A stretch of 64,000 nt of DNA from a bacterium (GCA_049472335.1 JBLIRO010000011.1:5084-69083), one strand, 5' to 3'. Positions 8,180 through 46,672 are shown, counted from the stretch's first letter. A program made the numbers and translations. The notes: generated from the sequence alone by a model not told the origin.

Positions 8180-8617
8180 TTGATTGAGTGTCAAACCGAA
8201 ATTTCAAAAAAGGTACATAATATATTGGTAGTTGATGATGAACCAGCAGTCAGGATGACCATTGAAGAGATGTTAAAACCTCTGAACTGTACAATATTTC
8301 ATGCAAGTAACGGAAATGAGGCCTTAGATATTATAAGGACGGGCGAGATTCATCTTGTTATTCTGGACGTTCTTTTACCGGGCAGACATGGTTTTTATGT
8401 CTGTTCTTCCATTCGTGAGATGGAACAAGGACGAAATATACCTATTTTAATGATGACAGCGGTTTATACAAAGATGAAGTATTATTACCAGGCTCAAGAA
8501 TGTGGCGTAAATGCGTATATGGTAAAACCATTTAAAATGGATGACCTCATATCTAAAGTAAGCAAGTTGCTCAATATTAACTGTAAACAACAAATGGTTT
8601 CTGAAAAGGCAGTTTAA
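8180..8617 (+). CDS. Single-domain response regulator
   Basis: VVDDE, LVILDVLLPG (Asp intact), MTA, VKPF. Confidence 0.85.
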   Translation: MIECQTEISKKVHNILVVDDEPAVRMTIEEMLKPLNCTIFHASNGNEALDIIRTGEIHLVILDVLLPGRHGFYVCSSIREMEQGRNIPILMMTAVYTKMKYYYQAQECGVNAYMVKPFKMDDLISKVSKLLNINCKQQMVSEKAV

Positions 8618-8618
8618 G

Positions 8619-10253
8619 GTGAATTTCACATTGAATTGGTCTAAGAAAAGAATCGTTTTACTGACGAGATGGTTACTCATCATTGTCATTTCTTATCTGA
8701 TCATTTTCAGCTACGGTTATGGCTCTTTTTCTCCTCTCTCTATAGAATGTTTACTTATTGTTCTCTATATGATATCTAATATTTTTCTCGGATTTATGAA
8801 TGAACCTTTCTTCAATCGCAAGGGCTTTGATATAGCTCTGTTTTGTTTTGACACCACAATGATCTCGCTTGGCATATATATTGCCGGTGTAATAGAAGCT
8901 GATTTCTATATTGTATTATTTCTGGAAATCATCTTTCTCAGCATGGCCCATAACCTTAAAAATGTTATTTTCAGCGCCACAATTTTTTGCTGTATATATG
9001 GTTTCTTTATAATGAATTATTTCCAGAAAAATCTTCTATATAGAGAAAACTATCTGCTACGTCTTCCCCTTTTATTTATTTTTGCCATATATTTTGGAAG
9101 CGTAGCAATAATTTTTAAAAAAAAGATAAAGGAGGTCAAAAATCTCTCTGAAAGATGCCGTCTAATATTCAGCAATATCCGCGATATGGTATTCTGCCTG
9201 GATTGCCACGGAAAATTCACCTTTGTTAGTCCAAGCAGCAGGGAGGTCATAGGTCAACATGCCAGAACCCTTATTGAGAACTCTGATATATTTTATTTTC
9301 AAGTCCTCCCCGATGATAAAAACAGATTAATCTCTTTATTGTCCAACTTGACGAACCAGCCCAAACAGGGGAAGTTTGAATTCAGGATTAATCATCCTAT
9401 AAAAGGGACCCGTTGGCTACAGATGATATACTCCCCCAATAAAGACGAGGATGGCAACTGGCAAGGAATCCAGGGCTCCATAAGGGACATATCCGATCTT
9501 AAGGAAACGCAAAATACAATTATTCAATCGGAACGATTGCTGTCAATGGGAAAGCTGGCATCCAGTATGGCATTGGAAATAAATAACCCCCTTCAGGCCA
9601 TTAAGAATATGCTCCATCTTTTAGATAATAATATGAATTTTGACGATACACAAAAAAATGCCCTGGAAATAATAAAGGAAGGTGAAGCACACATCGAAAA
9701 CATCCTCCAGAAAATTCTCGAGATATCATATCATGAAACCTCTGAGAAGGTTCCTGTAGACATACATCTTCTTCTTCAAAAGGCGGTATCGATTACAAAA
9801 AGCAGGATGAAGCTGGACAAGATCCAGATAAAATTCGCCTTTGATCCAGAAAATGTTATGGTATTGGCTAATCCAAAACTTTTATACGATGTCTTTCTGA
9901 ATATCATATTAAACTCAATAGAAGCGATGAACGATGGAGGGAAAATCTCTCTGTCTACAATCAAGAAAAAGGAACATCTGACGGTTCAATTCACTGATAA
10001 CGGTCACGGCATTCCCGCTGAGCAATTGGCACATATATTTGAGCCCTTCTACACAACAAAGAAAAAAGTAAATTCTTCCGGTCTTGGTCTGACTATATGT
10101 TACTGGATACTCAGGGAGATAGGGGGCGATATCCGGATAAATAGCCTGAATGGGATAGGAACCACAACAACACTTACACTTCCGCTTTATGATTCAACCA
10201 AATATCCTGAGAAGAAAAAAATGGAAATAAAACCGGGAGTTTGTCATGCCTGA
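8619..10253 (+). CDS. Membrane PAS sensor histidine kinase lacking the phosphoacceptor His (pseudokinase-like)
   Basis: About 5 TM helices, PAS/PAC, N box LNIILNSIEAM, DNGHGI, FEPFYTTK, GLGL. The H box reads MALEINNPL instead of AHEINNPL. Confidence 0.8.
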   Translation: MNFTLNWSKKRIVLLTRWLLIIVISYLIIFSYGYGSFSPLSIECLLIVLYMISNIFLGFMNEPFFNRKGFDIALFCFDTTMISLGIYIAGVIEADFYIVLFLEIIFLSMAHNLKNVIFSATIFCCIYGFFIMNYFQKNLLYRENYLLRLPLLFIFAIYFGSVAIIFKKKIKEVKNLSERCRLIFSNIRDMVFCLDCHGKFTFVSPSSREVIGQHARTLIENSDIFYFQVLPDDKNRLISLLSNLTNQPKQGKFEFRINHPIKGTRWLQMIYSPNKDEDGNWQGIQGSIRDISDLKETQNTIIQSERLLSMGKLASSMALEINNPLQAIKNMLHLLDNNMNFDDTQKNALEIIKEGEAHIENILQKILEISYHETSEKVPVDIHLLLQKAVSITKSRMKLDKIQIKFAFDPENVMVLANPKLLYDVFLNIILNSIEAMNDGGKISLSTIKKKEHLTVQFTDNGHGIPAEQLAHIFEPFYTTKKKVNSSGLGLTICYWILREIGGDIRINSLNGIGTTTTLTLPLYDSTKYPEKKKMEIKPGVCHA

Positions 10254-11310
10254 AAACAAAGATGTAAAAATTTTAATCATTGATGACGATCCCTTGGTTA
10301 TGCAAAGCTTTTTATCGCTCTTAAATTCCGATGGATATTCAACGGTCGGAGTAACGTCCGTATTCGAGGCTTTAACACTTATGGAGCAGGAAGTTTTTGA
10401 TATTGTAATCACTGAGCTAATGATGGATGAAATGGGGGGCAATGAGTTATTGACTGCTCTCCGTCAAAAAGCCCCTGAGATTATTATCCTGATTCTCACT
10501 GGGTACGGATCTATAAATATGGCCATAGATGCAATACGCAACGGGGCCCACGATTACATTCTCAAACCCTGTGACTATAATGCTCTAAAAAACAGGATAG
10601 ACAAAGCGATCTCAACGATAAAGCCTTTATCGGAAGGAAAGAAGGAATCAAATCAAACAATCGGGGATTCAGAGGAACCTTATAAAATTGTTTTGGAAAA
10701 TATCAATGATCTCTTACTTCTTTTTGACAGGAATAGAAACTGTATATATGCAAGTCCAAGCTGGGGAAGCCAGCTTGGTTTATCCCAGAGCAGACTAATA
10801 GATAAAAATTGGATAAATCTGCTTTCCTTTGAAGACAAAAAAAAGATTGAGCGGGCTTTCCTGACCCTTAAAACAAGCAAAGAACCAAGGCAGGAATTTG
10901 TTATCAGCTTAAACGGAAAGAATAATGATATTAGAACATTCAAAGGTTATATGATTTTCATAAAAAAAGATATGAATCAAGAATCGCGAGTATTCCTTAT
11001 TCTCAACGATATCACTGAGCATATGAAGATCCAGGTCCAGGAAAAAGAGATAGAACGTATTAAAGCGGCAAAAGACTTGGCGATAGCTACTGCGCATCAT
11101 GTCAATCAACCTATGACATGCATAAGGGGTCTTACCGAGGTCATGCTCAAAGAACCTAAAAGCCGAAATACTGTTCTGGAATATTTAGAGCAAATAATGA
11201 TACAGTGTGACATTGTTCAGGATATTATTAATAGACTTCTGAATATCAATGATTACAAAACCATAGCTTATGTTGATGAGGAGATGCTCAATCTTTTTTC
11301 AGATGATTAA
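10246..11310 (+). CDS. REC(Asp->Glu)-PAS-HisKA protein without ATPase domain
   Basis: IIDDD...DIVITELMM...LTGYG...YILKP, then PAS, then AHHVNQP H box followed by only about 70 aa. Confidence 0.75.
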   Translation: MPENKDVKILIIDDDPLVMQSFLSLLNSDGYSTVGVTSVFEALTLMEQEVFDIVITELMMDEMGGNELLTALRQKAPEIIILILTGYGSINMAIDAIRNGAHDYILKPCDYNALKNRIDKAISTIKPLSEGKKESNQTIGDSEEPYKIVLENINDLLLLFDRNRNCIYASPSWGSQLGLSQSRLIDKNWINLLSFEDKKKIERAFLTLKTSKEPRQEFVISLNGKNNDIRTFKGYMIFIKKDMNQESRVFLILNDITEHMKIQVQEKEIERIKAAKDLAIATAHHVNQPMTCIRGLTEVMLKEPKSRNTVLEYLEQIMIQCDIVQDIINRLLNINDYKTIAYVDEEMLNLFSDD

Positions 11311-11368: not shown

Positions 11369-11971
11369 ATGCATATAGAATCCATTACCAAAAAAAAACA
11401 TTTTCTGACTTTAATTATTTTCCATTTCCTGATTTTAATTATTTGTATTGCCGTCCAATTACCTCTCAACTGCCATGCGCAGAGGTATCCTGCCCGCAGA
11501 GCCGGAAACTATTATCCTTCTGGCCCTTATTACACCGACTCAACCTATGAAGGTCCTTTACTCAGACTAAGTCTAGGATATGGCATACCGTATGGATTCT
11601 TAGGTATGAATGGTGAATTCATGCTCTTTGACTATATATCCATATCAGGAGGGATGGGTTACAGCCCCGGGGGCTCTAGTTGGATAACAGGGGTAAGGGT
11701 ATATATGAACGAGCCTGAAAAACATTTCAGGCCTAGGATTTCAACATTTTATGGGACTGTAAGCGTCCTGTCGAAAAAATATTATAATGAAGAAACATAC
11801 GAAAATGATCAGGGTTATGCCTATGGATTGGGTTTTGAATGGAAGGTCTTAAATCCAAGCAGGTATAGCTTAGATTTCGATATCATTTTGACAGATTATA
11901 ATGTTCCGCCAGGTTATGAAAAAAAAGGGCCGGAGATTAAGTTTTCTCTGGGTTTTGGTCGTATCTTCTGA
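11369..11971 (+). CDS. Hypothetical exported protein, probable outer-membrane beta-barrel
   Basis: Signal peptide, Gly/aromatic alternating strands, C-terminal FSLGFGRIF. Confidence 0.55.
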   Translation: MHIESITKKKHFLTLIIFHFLILIICIAVQLPLNCHAQRYPARRAGNYYPSGPYYTDSTYEGPLLRLSLGYGIPYGFLGMNGEFMLFDYISISGGMGYSPGGSSWITGVRVYMNEPEKHFRPRISTFYGTVSVLSKKYYNEETYENDQGYAYGLGFEWKVLNPSRYSLDFDIILTDYNVPPGYEKKGPEIKFSLGFGRIF

Positions 11972-13067: not shown

Positions 13068-16000
13068 ATGTCTTTTTTGCTCGATTTTCATATCCATTCT
13101 CATTTTTCAATAGCAACAAGCAAGGATTGCGATCCGGAGCACCTTTTCATATGGGCCTGTCTGAAAGGGTTATCTGTAATAGGAACTGGTGATTTCACGC
13201 ATCCGGGATGGTTTGAAGAACTGAACCAAAAGTTAATCCCCGCGGAAGAGGGGCTTTTTCGTCTTCGTCCGGAAATCGAAAAGAGCTTACTCGAGCAAAT
13301 CCCAAAAACCTGTTACAGGGATGTCCGTTTTATACTATCTTCAGAAATCAGCTCTATCTATAAAAAAAAAGGTAAAGTCAGAAAAATTCATAATTGTCTT
13401 CTGGTTCCAACTTTTGATAACGCAAAGGCCATTTCCAATCGACTGGAACAAATTGGTAATATAAGGGCGGACGGCAGGCCCATACTTGGACTGGACAGCT
13501 ATGAACTCCTGAAGATAATGCTGGACGAATCACCAAACGGCATATTTATCCCTGCGCATGTCTGGACCCCGCATTTTTCCCTCTTTGGCGCCTATTCAGG
13601 ATTCAATACCATTGAAGAGTGCTTTGAAGATTTGTCGCCCTGTATCTGGGCACTAGAAACCGGCCTCTCCTCTGATCCTTCAATGAACTGGCGGGTATCC
13701 GCTCTGGACAGATTCACTCTGGTCTCAAACTCAGACGCCCATTCACCAAAAAATCTTGCCAGAGAATCAAATATCTTAGATTGTGAATTATCCTTTCAGG
13801 CCATAAGATCCGCCATAAAGGATAAAGAAGCCGGCCAATTCAAGGGAACCATAGAGTTTTTCCCCCAGGAGGGAAAGTATCATTTCGACGGTCACCGTAA
13901 CTGCGGAATAAGATTAAATCCTGAGGAGACAATCGAGGCAGGAGGGATTTGTTCTAAATGCGGCAGAAAATTGACACTGGGTGTCATGCACAGGGTTGTG
14001 GAGCTTGCAGACAGGGAACCGGGATTTATTCCTCAAAAAACTCCTCCCTTCCATAGTCTCATTCCTCTCACTGAAATCCTGGCAGATTATTTCGGGTGCG
14101 GAGCGAACTCCAAGAAAGTAAATCAGGCCTATTTCAATCTCATTCAGAAGCTAGGGTCTGAATGGCAGATCCTTATGCTTACCCCGATAGAGGAAATCAA
14201 AAATTGCGCGGGGCCATCTCTCGCGGAAGGCATTGAGAGGGTTCGAACGGGAAAGGTAACCATAAAGCCCGGATTTGATGGTGAGTATGGAACCATATCG
14301 GTTTTTTCTCAGGAGGACAGGATGGGCAGAATGACACAGAAAGGTCTTTTTGCGATAGAAAAGAAAGAGGCTTGTTCACCATCAAAGCCTATTCCTGATT
14401 TTAAGAAAAAAAAGACCAAGCCATCAAAAATAGCCGCCTCTTGTTTGCTGGAGCCTGAATCCTCTTCAATCGTCAAAAAGAAGACCTCACCGGATATAAT
14501 ATCCTTTTCCAGCCAGCTAAATCCAACACAACAGAAATGTGTTAATGCATCCAAGGGGCCTGTTTTAGTTATTGCCGGACCCGGCACAGGAAAAACCAGA
14601 ACACTCGCCTTTCGAATAGCATTCCTTATCATGGAAAAAGATATCAAACCAGACAAAATCCTTGCAATCACCTTTACAAACAAGGCTGCCAAAGAGATGG
14701 CTCAACGACTTAACTCAATTATGAGTAATAATTCAGGCTCATCCGGTCCCTTTATAGGGACCTTTCACCATTTTTGCCTGGAGATTTTAAAAAGATACGG
14801 CCCATCGAATGACTTTATATTATTCCATACTTACGATAGCCTGGCATTGATTGATCTTATCCTTAAAGATATGGATAAGGGTAAATCCGTTAAAGCAAGG
14901 GACTGTCTCCAGAAGATCTCATTGCTAAAGGTCAAGAGGGGGAATGATTACAATGAAGGGGACATGGATCAGTTAACGCTTGACGTGTATAAGCAATATC
15001 AACAAAATCTTCTCAAATATAATGCGCTCGACTATGATGATCTGCTGGTTAAAACGGTTGAACTTATGGAAAAAGATGAAAATATTGCCGATAAAATACG
15101 GGCCCAATTCAATTTTATACTTGTAGATGAATTTCAGGACGTCAATTTTATCCAATATAAGCTTATACTTTTGTTGGGGGATAAAAAGGGAGAGAATCTC
15201 TTTCTGATAGGTGATCCGAATCAGGCCATATATGGTTTCCGAGGCGCCGACCGCAGGTTTTTCTTCCGAATAAAGGAGGAATTCCCTTTATGCTCCATAT
15301 TCTCACTGGAAGATAATTACCGTTCCACTTCCCCTATTATCAATTCCGCATCCTACTTAATATCGCACAACCCTCAAACGATCTCATTAAATATTAGATC
15401 ATTGCGGGGCGAAGGCCCTGTTATCAGAATTATTGAAGTCCCATCGGAAAAAGCGGAGGGGATTAGTATAGTCAAGGAAATTGGAATGCTTATGGGTGGG
15501 ATAGATATGATTCAGGCGCATGGCGAATCAGGCAAAAGCACTTATCTCTCCATTCAGAAAAGACAAAATGATTTTAGTTTTTCGGATTTCGCCATACTGT
15601 TCAGAACAAGTAATCAGGCGGATATAATAGAGGAATGTCTTTTAAAGGAAGGGATACCTTACAGGCTTACCGGACATCAGGGCATCATGGAAAATCCACT
15701 TATAAGACAAGTACTTGCCTTTTTAAGGTGGTGTCATATTCCTATGGATGAACACTCATTTTTACAGGCACTGGATCTGCCGATCTTTCAAATTAAAAAA
15801 GAGGAAAAGATTAAAATTTTCAAAATTTTCCAGGAAATAAATAATGAAATGAAACATCATATAGGGGACAGGCTCCAATCCGCCCGGCTTCATATAACCT
15901 CTAAATTAATCACAGATACAAATATGAAATCAATATCAAATATAATCGACACATATTCTGAAACGGCAAAGGAAAAGATGCCTTCTCAATTTATAGATCT

Positions 16001-16505
16001 AATAATTTCAGATTTGAAAGATTATCCGGAAACCAGAAACAACCGGAAGGACCTTGAAAGACTTAGATTGCTTGCAGAGGAATTTTTGGACATCTCTTCC
16101 TTCCTTGACAGTGCCGTCCTATATAGAGAAGGAGATATCTCCTGGAATGGGACCAAAGGAAAAAGGATTATGGAGATGGTCAGCCTGATGACCCTGCATG
16201 CGGCCAAAGGTCTCGAATTTCCCGTTGTATTCATTTGCGGATGCGAGGCCGGACTTCTTCCTTATAATTACAACAATAAAGAAGCAGATATAGAGGAGGA
16301 ACGAAGGTTATTCTATGTTGGGATGACAAGGGCAAAGGACCGTCTCTATTTATCGCGGTGCAAAAATCGTTTGTGGAGAGGGGAAAAACATATCTGTCAC
16401 ACATCCCCTTTTCTGGAAGAGATACCAGGTGCTTTTTCTGAAAGAGCCCATTTCTCGGCGTCTTCCCCTTTAAAACCAAAAGCCAGACAGCTCGGCCTCT
16501 GGTAA
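13068..16505 (+). CDS. Endonuclease Q-like PHP domain fused to a UvrD/PcrA helicase
   Basis: DFHIHSHFS, GTGDFTHP, SNSDAHS, EGKYH, HRNC..CSKC; helicase motifs AGPGTGKT, DEFQD, GDPNQAIYGFRGA, TLHAAKGLEF, EERRLFYVGMTRA. Confidence 0.9.
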   Translation: MSFLLDFHIHSHFSIATSKDCDPEHLFIWACLKGLSVIGTGDFTHPGWFEELNQKLIPAEEGLFRLRPEIEKSLLEQIPKTCYRDVRFILSSEISSIYKKKGKVRKIHNCLLVPTFDNAKAISNRLEQIGNIRADGRPILGLDSYELLKIMLDESPNGIFIPAHVWTPHFSLFGAYSGFNTIEECFEDLSPCIWALETGLSSDPSMNWRVSALDRFTLVSNSDAHSPKNLARESNILDCELSFQAIRSAIKDKEAGQFKGTIEFFPQEGKYHFDGHRNCGIRLNPEETIEAGGICSKCGRKLTLGVMHRVVELADREPGFIPQKTPPFHSLIPLTEILADYFGCGANSKKVNQAYFNLIQKLGSEWQILMLTPIEEIKNCAGPSLAEGIERVRTGKVTIKPGFDGEYGTISVFSQEDRMGRMTQKGLFAIEKKEACSPSKPIPDFKKKKTKPSKIAASCLLEPESSSIVKKKTSPDIISFSSQLNPTQQKCVNASKGPVLVIAGPGTGKTRTLAFRIAFLIMEKDIKPDKILAITFTNKAAKEMAQRLNSIMSNNSGSSGPFIGTFHHFCLEILKRYGPSNDFILFHTYDSLALIDLILKDMDKGKSVKARDCLQKISLLKVKRGNDYNEGDMDQLTLDVYKQYQQNLLKYNALDYDDLLVKTVELMEKDENIADKIRAQFNFILVDEFQDVNFIQYKLILLLGDKKGENLFLIGDPNQAIYGFRGADRRFFFRIKEEFPLCSIFSLEDNYRSTSPIINSASYLISHNPQTISLNIRSLRGEGPVIRIIEVPSEKAEGISIVKEIGMLMGGIDMIQAHGESGKSTYLSIQKRQNDFSFSDFAILFRTSNQADIIEECLLKEGIPYRLTGHQGIMENPLIRQVLAFLRWCHIPMDEHSFLQALDLPIFQIKKEEKIKIFKIFQEINNEMKHHIGDRLQSARLHITSKLITDTNMKSISNIIDTYSETAKEKMPSQFIDLIISDLKDYPETRNNRKDLERLRLLAEEFLDISSFLDSAVLYREGDISWNGTKGKRIMEMVSLMTLHAAKGLEFPVVFICGCEAGLLPYNYNNKEADIEEERRLFYVGMTRAKDRLYLSRCKNRLWRGEKHICHTSPFLEEIPGAFSERAHFSASSPLKPKARQLGLW

Positions 16506-45961: not shown

Positions 45962-46672
45962 TTATTCAAACTCCCGGTCATCATTAAGAATTGATTTATT
46001 CAGATCGAGCATCTTGACACCCGAGATATATTCCATACTTATTACCCTTGTGGCGTTTGAGAGTTTGCTTATAACCTGCTTTATACGATCTACTTCCTTC
46101 AGGATTATATCGATCTTACGAAGAACCGAATCATCAGAGCTATTTATATGGGTCTTTAACATTTCAGCATTAGCAGAAATCGAGCATAGCGGATTATTGA
46201 TTTCATGATTAACACTGACAGCTATCTGAGCCAAGGTCTCCAGTTTTCTGGCTTCTATCAATTGCTTTTGAAGTTCCCGAAGCTTTAAAAGTGATTCTAC
46301 CCTGGTTAAAAGCTCCACATAATAAATTGGTTTTGTAATGTAATCGTCAGCCCCGAGCTTGAGTCCTTGGATTCTGTCCTTCATGGTATCCCTGCAGGTA
46401 ACCATAATGAGAGGGATCATGCTGGTTTCGTCGGATTCCTTCAATTTTTTACATACAGCGAATCCATCCATCTTGGGCAAAGCCAGATCCAGCAATATGA
46501 GATCGGGGGAATCTTCAAATGCCATTTTAAGGGCTTCCTGCCCATTTTCTGCAGATATTACATTATATCCGTATGTGTTCAAGATCTTTTTAAAAAGATG
46601 CAGGATATCCTTATTGTCGTCCACCACAAGGATTTTTTTATTCTTAATGATATCTTCAATCTTCATAGACAT
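45962..46672 (-). CDS. REC-HisKA protein without ATPase domain
   Basis: DLILLDLALPKMDG (Asp intact), GADDYITKP, NHEINNPL, short tail. Confidence 0.8.
   Translation of the reverse strand: MSMKIEDIIKNKKILVVDDNKDILHLFKKILNTYGYNVISAENGQEALKMAFEDSPDLILLDLALPKMDGFAVCKKLKESDETSMIPLIMVTCRDTMKDRIQGLKLGADDYITKPIYYVELLTRVESLLKLRELQKQLIEARKLETLAQIAVSVNHEINNPLCSISANAEMLKTHINSSDDSVLRKIDIILKEVDRIKQVISKLSNATRVISMEYISGVKMLDLNKSILNDDREFE

Follow-up and report, generated by a model that had tools for sequence, protein, structure and literature searches.

Histidine kinases are taught as self-phosphorylating homodimers, and to our knowledge the only split kinases that have been worked out are of the CheA type. 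Classical heterodimers, in which one kinase chain lacks its histidine and the other its ATP site, complement each other in trans. Here we describe a module of three genes that fills positions 8180-11310 of a 64,000-nucleotide (nt) stretch of bacterial DNA (GCA_049472335.1, JBLIRO010000011.1:5084-69083; the whole stretch is called the window below). In this module, a kinase-like membrane protein without a phospho-acceptor histidine (B) lies between a single-domain response regulator (A) and a histidine carrier without an ATPase domain (C). We lean, tentatively and with less than even confidence, towards reading A-B-C as a phosphorelay with a divided kinase, in which the ATPase of B would phosphorylate His284 of C and the phosphate would pass on to Asp63 of A.

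In Rhodobacter sphaeroides, the kinase domain (CheA4) and the phosphorylatable histidine (CheA3) reside on separate proteins, neither of which is reported to autophosphorylate alone, and the histidine carrier both serves a single-domain regulator and acts as its phosphatase (PMC3591291, in part; for this and the other sources so marked, our statements hold for the part of the text that was available). Hik36/Hik43 of Synechocystis is also a split kinase of the CheA type (PMC7656254). Our module resembles CheA3/CheA4 in that B has a kinase domain without the histidine and C has the histidine without a kinase domain. CheA3/CheA4 are class II proteins with their histidine on a P1 domain of the histidine phosphotransfer (HPt) type, whereas the histidine of C sits on a HisKA hairpin, the dimerization and histidine phosphotransfer (DHp) domain. 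Unlike the CheA pair, both halves here keep a DHp domain, so that a mixed four-helix bundle would be possible, and B and C are PAS and membrane sensors rather than parts of a chemotaxis array. Because its histidine is on a DHp and not an HPt-type domain, A-B-C would work like CheA3/CheA4 but stand outside that family.

Pseudokinases and DHp-type phosphotransferases are the other points of comparison. Like B, DivL of Caulobacter has a replaced histidine, a preserved H-box context with N, G1, F and G2 boxes, a succession of PAS, DHp and catalytic ATP-binding (CA) domains, and a single-domain receiver as partner (PMC4211667, in part). Unlike B, which has a variable Leu, Val or Gln at the histidine position, DivL has a conserved Tyr there, and it has no adjacent ATPase-less histidine carrier. 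We do not regard B as a DivL orthologue, since the conserved Tyr is missing and the top NCBIfam model for B is an AtoS-like one (210 bits, under the cut-off of that model). C resembles PhyK and LovK, which act with MrrA, in placing a DHp histidine carrier alongside a single-domain receiver (PMC5964349, in part). It has the structural features of a DHp phosphotransferase, namely a hairpin, an invariant His284 and no HATPase_c domain. In Spo0B and ChpT, a dimeric DHp histidine shuttles phosphate between receivers without ATP, and a CA or CA-like domain is kept. Unlike Spo0B, ChpT and PhyK/LovK, C has no CA-like domain but only a short tail, carries a Glu-locked receiver and a PAS domain, and adjoins a His-less kinase.

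A survey from 2013 counted 3.66% of HisKA proteins without an ATPase domain, which "could be" split (PMC3591291, in part). A His-less hybrid kinase of Caulobacter has prompted the same speculation about heterodimers, without a test (PMC11481889), and recent reviews mention RetS/GacS heteromers and DivL and, in the parts available, no HisKA split kinase (PMC12189002, PMC12471899). In a search that had most subscription journals outside its reach, we found no publication that describes a HisKA kinase without its His alongside a histidine carrier without an ATPase. A-B-C may realistically be the first class I split kinase known from nature.

Anatomy of the A-B-C module

A, B and C are three open reading frames (ORFs) on the + strand. 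Gene A (8180-8617) encodes a single-domain response regulator of 145 amino acids (aa) with a receiver at 8222-8560 (Pfam Response_reg, 87.8 bits), and its phospho-acceptor Asp63 (GAC, 8366-8368) falls in the acceptor column of the alignment. Gene B (8619-10253) starts 1 nt past the stop codon of A, and gene C (10246-11310) overlaps B by 8 nt at 10246-10253 (ATGCCTGA), with GGGAG preceding its start. Because this overlap, the EVCHA end of B, the embedded start of C and GGGAG are conserved together in orthologues, B and C are probably translationally coupled. A profile search detected no further HisKA kinase or HATPase_c match in the window, and within the operon the single ATP site lies on B, the single phosphorylatable His on C and the single phosphorylatable Asp on A. 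A scan for promoters and terminators between 7600 and 12200 returned 14 promoter-like sites (17.7 expected) and 2 terminator-like sites (3.0 expected).

B is a 544-aa protein made of a membrane part of about 170 residues with roughly six hydrophobic segments (8619-9128, read by eye), a PAS domain (9153-9503, Pfam), a DHp domain (9519-9743; Pfam HisKA PF00512, 34.8 bits against a cut-off of 26.9) and a CA domain that binds ATP (9870-10190; HATPase_c PF02518, 83.5 bits). The position of the phospho-acceptor His is occupied by Leu319 (TTG, 9573-9575) in an H box reading MALEINNPL. Directly after it, Glu320 (9576-9578) and Asn323 (9585-9587) form an E-x-x-N motif. The ATP-binding boxes are complete, with N428 and N432 (N box), D460, G462 and G464 (G1), F474 and F477 (F), and G488 and G490 (G2); these residues and P476 are invariant across twelve aligned sequences (nine members of the B family and three canonical kinases), as are E320, N323 and P324 of the H box. 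Thus B has the HisKA and HATPase_c domains of a class I kinase, including its N, G1, F and G2 boxes, and lacks the H-box His. The helix leading up to the vacant position is relaxed, with 4 of 18 positions invariant; past residue 319, 8 of 17 are invariant (12/35 in total). His333 in the DHp domain was considered as an alternative phospho-acceptor and rejected, being present in some orthologues only, and no other conserved His was seen in this domain in the orthologue alignment. B is the sole exception among the 61 HisKA matches in its genome, the other 60 of which have His at the H box.

The membrane domain of B has no second copy in its own genome. It does recur, at 34% identity, at the N-terminus of database protein P0033 (652 aa), a canonical kinase with the H box AHEINNPL, which by this resemblance is likely to represent the His-bearing ancestor type of B.

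C is a 354-aa protein with a receiver (10270-10599; Response_reg PF00072, 92.3 bits), a PAS domain (10690-11013, Pfam), a DHp domain (11014-11241; HisKA, 31.0 bits) and a tail (11242-11307) without a HATPase_c match. Its receiver has the fold and profile of the domain and, in place of the phospho-Asp, Glu57 (GAG, 10414-10416, in DIVITELMMDEMGG). The sole candidate phospho-acceptor His of the operon is His284 (CAT, 11095-11097) in the H box AHHVNQP, and it is followed by His at position +1 (11098-11100), where orthologues have Tyr or Asn. When C is aligned to a canonical 503-aa relative with receiver, PAS, HisKA and HATPase domains, the Asp of the relative stands opposite Glu57 and the His of its AHEINNPL opposite His284. 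An AlphaFold2 monomer model of C (mean predicted local distance difference test score 68.8, from a 10-sequence alignment) shows the receiver, with an alpha/beta pattern over residues 8-130, the PAS domain, a helical hairpin (helices 257-301 and 307-332) and a short, poorly defined tail. The helix that carries His284 is near-frozen in the C family, with 14 of 18 positions invariant on the N-terminal side of the His and 11 of 17 on its C-terminal side (25/35 in total).

An Asp-to-Glu change is able to mimic phosphorylation in some response regulators. In the C family, the pocket around Glu57 retains D13, D14 (Asp or Glu), T85 and K107, and since these residues are kept, a receiver held in an "on-like" state appears to fit better than decay. 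The sequence-only reading of this DNA had described A as a single receiver with an intact Asp, B as a membrane kinase with its boxes preserved around a MALEINNPL H box, and C as an overlapping histidine carrier with Glu57 and no ATPase domain; the ORFs, Pfam matches and alignments given above bear out this description.

From the anatomy, conservation, selection and gene coupling of the module, we infer a route for the phosphoryl group. B would act as a membrane and PAS sensor that binds ATP through its intact CA domain and has no His of its own to phosphorylate, and C carries the one His of the operon that can be phosphorylated, His284, in a DHp hairpin to which no CA domain is attached. Co-made by coupled translation, the two would then assemble, either into a mixed DHp bundle or with C docked on a dimer of B; one possible docking route places the "on-like" locked Glu57 receiver of C on the receiver-binding face of B. 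The CA domain of B would phosphorylate His284 of C, which would hand the phosphoryl group to Asp63 of A, and the E-x-x-N motif of B may additionally dephosphorylate A~P. The sequences fit C, not B, as the docking partner of A, because the helix of His284 is far more invariant than its counterpart in B and the first helix of A is near-constant among orthologues (by eye).

Conservation and selection

Relatives were searched for in 61 genomes (that of the window, G000, and 60 others). Full-length orthologues of C (54-91% identity) are confined to five other members of the same bacterial family, and a family-wide search found the C orthologue in single copy in each of the six genomes. In each of the five related loci that were fetched, B adjoins C, and A is present, with Asp63 retained, in the four loci whose contigs reach it; the G004 contig stops inside B, so that A is not covered there. 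Across the six genomes, the H-box position of B reads L, L, L, L, V and Q. In C, His284 and a Glu in the Asp column are present throughout, and position +1 of His284 reads H, H, H, H, Y and N. The resulting pairs of B-319 and C-285 are (L,H), (V,Y) and (Q,N); as they come from three lineages only, we do not use them as evidence of covariation.

At the protein level, a collection of 5.8 billion proteins yielded ten members of the C family, all with Glu57 and His284, and nine members of the B family besides the window protein, all without the His (Leu in six, Val in two, Gln in one). The nearest proteins outside the B family (31-40% identity) read AHEINNPL. A first-match scan for the H-box motif over 120 listed proteins gave His in 104, Leu, Val or Gln in nine and other letters in seven; of these seven, the match in P0041 lies outside the H box, and the remaining six are the output of the first-match scan alone.

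Every compared domain of B and C is under purifying selection, with ratios of nonsynonymous to synonymous substitution rates (dN/dS) of 0.06-0.21 against G004, whose domains are 91-96% identical. In B, the ratio is 0.10 for the PAS domain, 0.097 for DHp and 0.070 for CA; in C, it is 0.18 for the receiver, 0.21 for the PAS domain and 0.060 for DHp. A stretch of 94 codons in the membrane part of B (8847-9128, residues 77-170) is identical in nucleotides between G000 and G004 (dN = dS = 0) and abuts the end of the G004 contig, the remainder of B having a dS of 0.16-0.36; this stretch may be a product of recombination or an assembly or binning artefact.

The sequence-only reading had argued that the TTG of Leu319 is unlikely to be a single sequencing error, and this holds: the codon differs from both His codons (CAT, CAC) in all three bases. 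Contigs from other studies show no change at the three key codons among the differences listed. Two records with no other differing letter cover TTG, and at least one such record covers each of GAG and CAT; as 15 differences in these contigs are not itemised, only the zero-difference records are fully certain. The contigs that carry A-B-C come from marine-sediment, mangrove, estuary and other sediment metagenomes, and no RNA data set was listed among the sequencing runs with the module.

The same reading had taken orthologues that retain His and Asp as the sign of strain-specific decay. What the orthologues carry instead is the complementary pair of defects, a B without His in 6/6 genomes and 9/9 database proteins and a C with Glu57 and His284 in 6/6 genomes and 10/10 proteins, a co-conservation that speaks for the divided kinase. 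On this co-conservation and the purifying selection, strain-specific decay is excluded, and the layout is a working design. Accordingly, it is most improbable that the substitutions are errors of sequencing or mutations that recently inactivated a system on its way out. Glu57 is one base from Asp (GAG against GAT or GAC), which would suit such an origin, but the same states recur down to 51-54% identity, and the selection values, the three-base distance of TTG from His codons and the agreement of other studies' contigs are all at odds with it.

A family of PAS-DHp proteins without an ATPase domain

We searched 1.84 billion representative proteins with the PAS-DHp part of C as the query and obtained a single close cluster at 416 bits, followed by a drop to 107 bits. 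Among the 149 further proteins listed, 10 end shortly past the H box, and eight of these (P0173, P0191, P0198, P0216, P0231, P0242, P0269, and P0271) share the H box C-H-E-[LM]-N-Q-P and the tail I.DY.T.DYAG...I[IL]D[IL]. An hhalign comparison of the C family with this eight-protein family (99.8% probability, E 7e-29) runs through the DHp domain and the tail (...In.YeT..YvDE). The two share the tail motif Y-x-T-x-x-Y...[ML]L[DN][LI] and end about 20-45 residues past helix 2. Because the hhalign match spans both the DHp domain and the tail, we assign C to a large, unnamed ATPase-less PAS-DHp-tail family, of which, by this comparison, it is a divergent member. The H box of the family has an invariant H356 and E357; C differs, reading A-H-[HYN]-[VI]-N-Q-P. 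No specific NCBIfam family was found for C, nor for P0173, P0242, P0231 or a 236-aa protein of the window described below.

In metagenomes, the pattern of the family occurs in at least 597 stretches, with at least 531 confirmed relatives. The neighbourhood counts given here and below cover the best 79 loci (L064-L142) of these relatives, scored with HisKA, HATPase and receiver profiles made from the matches of the window's own genome. The C-terminus of the family protein falls inside the locus in 78 cases, and in 75 of them it comes no more than 45 residues past the DHp domain. A single-domain receiver gene follows directly downstream in 32 of the 62 loci with room for one, and these downstream receivers keep the Asp in 31 of 34 cases, the other three being alignment gaps. 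N-terminal receivers of family members likewise have Asp (5/5). Five loci include a hybrid kinase, which is immediately upstream in L065, L088 and L129. The DHp domains found in these loci have His in 92 of 92 cases, with no His-less kinase among them. From these sequences, the family looks like a widespread DHp-type phosphotransfer cassette. A itself scores about 45-53 bits against the single receivers adjoining the family, equal to its scores against generic receivers of its own genome, and therefore no special kinship of A is shown.

Proteins of related layout also occur elsewhere in the genome of the window. Of its 61 HisKA genes, three have no HATPase_c match in the 700 nt that follow them on their own strand, namely C and two others. 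A 236-aa protein at 45962-46672 (- strand) joins a receiver with intact Asp to a DHp domain with the H box SVNHEINNPL and a C-like tail; it has no ATPase domain and no adjacent kinase, adjoins genes that by eye resemble signal recognition particle and ribosomal-protein genes, and has counterparts of near-identical architecture in metagenome loci L131, L132 and L134. A 379-aa paralogue of C lies outside the window (G000, C91:11742-12881, - strand) and comprises a receiver with intact Asp, a PAS domain, a DHp domain and a tail, again without an ATPase domain. Its H box is AAHNINQPL, with Asn after the His, and it has no kinase neighbour. G001-G005 hold matches to C at 25-26% identity in open frames of 367-411 aa. 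No partner consisting of a CA domain only was found for the 236-aa and 379-aa proteins among the 7 of about 20 HATPase matches without HisKA that were read; these seven are HisKA_3, HisKA_2 or cyclic-nucleotide-linked kinases or a fragment.

A has two close paralogues (about 137 bits) in G000, at C91:31736-32161 (- strand) and C80:25462-25872 (+ strand). Both share its unusual motif VYTK.KY.YQ.KE.GANA, and one of the two lies downstream of a hybrid kinase at C91:33478-36207.

Beyond the module, positions 11369-11971 (+ strand) encode a protein of 200 aa that has a signal peptide, ends in GFGRIF and by eye resembles an outer-membrane beta-barrel. It lies directly 3' of C in all five related loci, including that of G005 in another genus (tblastn). 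Since it is kept in this place throughout, it may belong to the A-B-C operon, though its membership is uncertain. Further along, an ORF of 1145 aa at 13068-16505 (+ strand), conserved in the genus, appears by eye to be a UvrD-type helicase fused to an N-terminal part that is PHP-like (HIHSHFS).

Weighing a divided kinase

In favour of a divided kinase, two features set the module apart from the wider family: the closed receiver route (Glu57) and the adjoining His-less kinase (0 of the 92 DHp domains in the loci above) are both unique to the C clade. Such a transfer is also feasible: the separated DHp and CA domains of EnvZ function in vitro, with a working ATP site phosphorylating the His on the other chain, and CheA4 phosphorylates CheA3 (PMC3591291, in part). 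Unlike EnvZ and other engineered complementation, which pairs mutants of one protein, B and C are diverged natural genes.

Several observations weigh against this reading. The residue at +1 of His284 is His, Tyr or Asn and never Glu or Asp, and Willett and Kirby found the +1 acid to be required for the kinase but not the phosphatase activity of CrdS, HK1190, HK4262 and HK853, with CrdS E372A, E372D, E372G and E372Q all kinase-dead (PMC3510030, in part). In the same work, the Asn or Thr at +4 was needed for phosphatase activity only, and a kinase with His replaced by Ala retained the greater part of its phosphatase activity, giving CrdA~P a half-life of 2.6 min as compared to 0.7 with the wild type and 53.5 without enzyme. 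By analogy with these findings, B, which has no His and keeps the Glu and Asn, looks like a phosphatase-competent protein. DivL, whose boxes are all intact apart from the His, is described in the available part of its source as active neither as a kinase nor as a phosphatase (PMC4211667), and PhyK and LovK have conserved CA domains yet act as phosphotransferases that take phosphate from MrrA (PMC5964349, in part). Moreover, an ORF with a HATPase domain is found in only 11 of 78 loci of the ATPase-less family; since the other 67 lack one, the histidines of the family evidently do not depend on an ATPase partner of their own. Finally, the conservation of the module was all seen within a single small clade, whose members are uncultured bacteria from sediments, and therefore represents one evolutionary event. 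The earlier interpretation of B and C as complementary halves has thus fared unevenly: the complementarity is co-conserved, and the interpretation is weakened by the ATPase-less family context, the missing +1 acid and the DivL, PhyK and LovK precedents. We also considered a composite site in which Glu320 of B completes His284 of C, and rejected it on the geometry of solved DHp bundles, in which the two sites would lie on opposite faces.

In a rival arrangement, A and C would form a relay of the Spo0F/Spo0B or MrrA/PhyK kind fed by an outside kinase, and B would be kinase-dead and act on A~P through E-x-x-N, as a phosphatase gated by signals or as a sink controller, its ATP domain being regulatory or for a nucleotide cofactor. 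We consider this nearly as probable as the divided kinase, and likewise less likely than not. The short C-termini of the family, the Asp-bearing single receivers that so often follow its members and the hybrid kinases in five of its loci all point this way, as does the absence from C of the +1 acid reported as kinase-specific. E320 and N323 of B are invariant, the 1-nt spacer between A and B is that of a usual regulator-kinase pairing, and with 61 HisKA matches in the genome outside donors are plentiful. The ability of PhyK and LovK to accept phosphate from MrrA (PMC5964349, in part) and the phosphatase activity of a His-to-Ala kinase (PMC3510030, in part) provide precedents. However, the surroundings of the module hold no conserved donor kinase (an additional kinase gene lies downstream in G005 but not in the genus of the window), and such a relay leaves unexplained why the receiver of C is Glu-locked in this clade alone, why B and C are coupled, and why the ATP-binding residues of B are invariant. 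The docking helix of B is also variable, with 8 of 17 positions invariant after the H position against a near-constant first helix of A, which is unexpected for a tight B-A pair.

If B were instead a non-catalytic pseudokinase in the manner of DivL, its DHp and CA domains would sense A~P, or the Glu57 receiver of C as a permanent mimic of it, and would relay this information to or from the PAS and membrane domains of B. C would thereby be kept at the membrane, with binding as the sole means of its regulation. The replacement of the His with all other boxes kept, as in DivL, agrees with this, and so does the retention of D13, D14, T85 and K107 in the receiver of C, as expected of an on-like conformation; B-319 and C-57 presumably face each other in a kinase-receiver complex. 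Nevertheless, no part of C is better conserved than His284 with its helix (dN/dS 0.060), which points to phosphoryl chemistry rather than binding alone, and B-319 varies among Leu, Val and Gln, unlike the conserved Tyr of DivL. We therefore regard this explanation as unlikely.

Returning to the divided kinase, its fullest form would make A-B-C the first natural class I (HisKA) kinase split over two genes, active only as a B:C complex in which membrane and two PAS signals coincide, with C tethered by its Glu-locked pseudo-receiver. We offer this as a possibility that the sequences suggest, and one that we doubt somewhat more than we credit.

For class I kinases that are heteromers in nature, the operon provides a clean and conserved test case, in which the ATP site, the His and the Asp are each single and lie on separate small proteins. 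Modelling predicts switch-like responses from splitting a bifunctional kinase, and a split design of this type could for that reason serve in synthetic circuits. Either outcome, whether a split kinase or a pseudokinase with a phosphotransferase relay, gives a role to the large, uncharacterised ATPase-less PAS-DHp family. If the kinase is indeed divided between B and C, then, by extension, metagenomes may contain hundreds of His subunits, in the form of the ATPase-less PAS-DHp-tail proteins, that borrow ATPase domains or relay phosphate, and a layer of two-component wiring would lie hidden under the annotation "PAS domain S-box protein".

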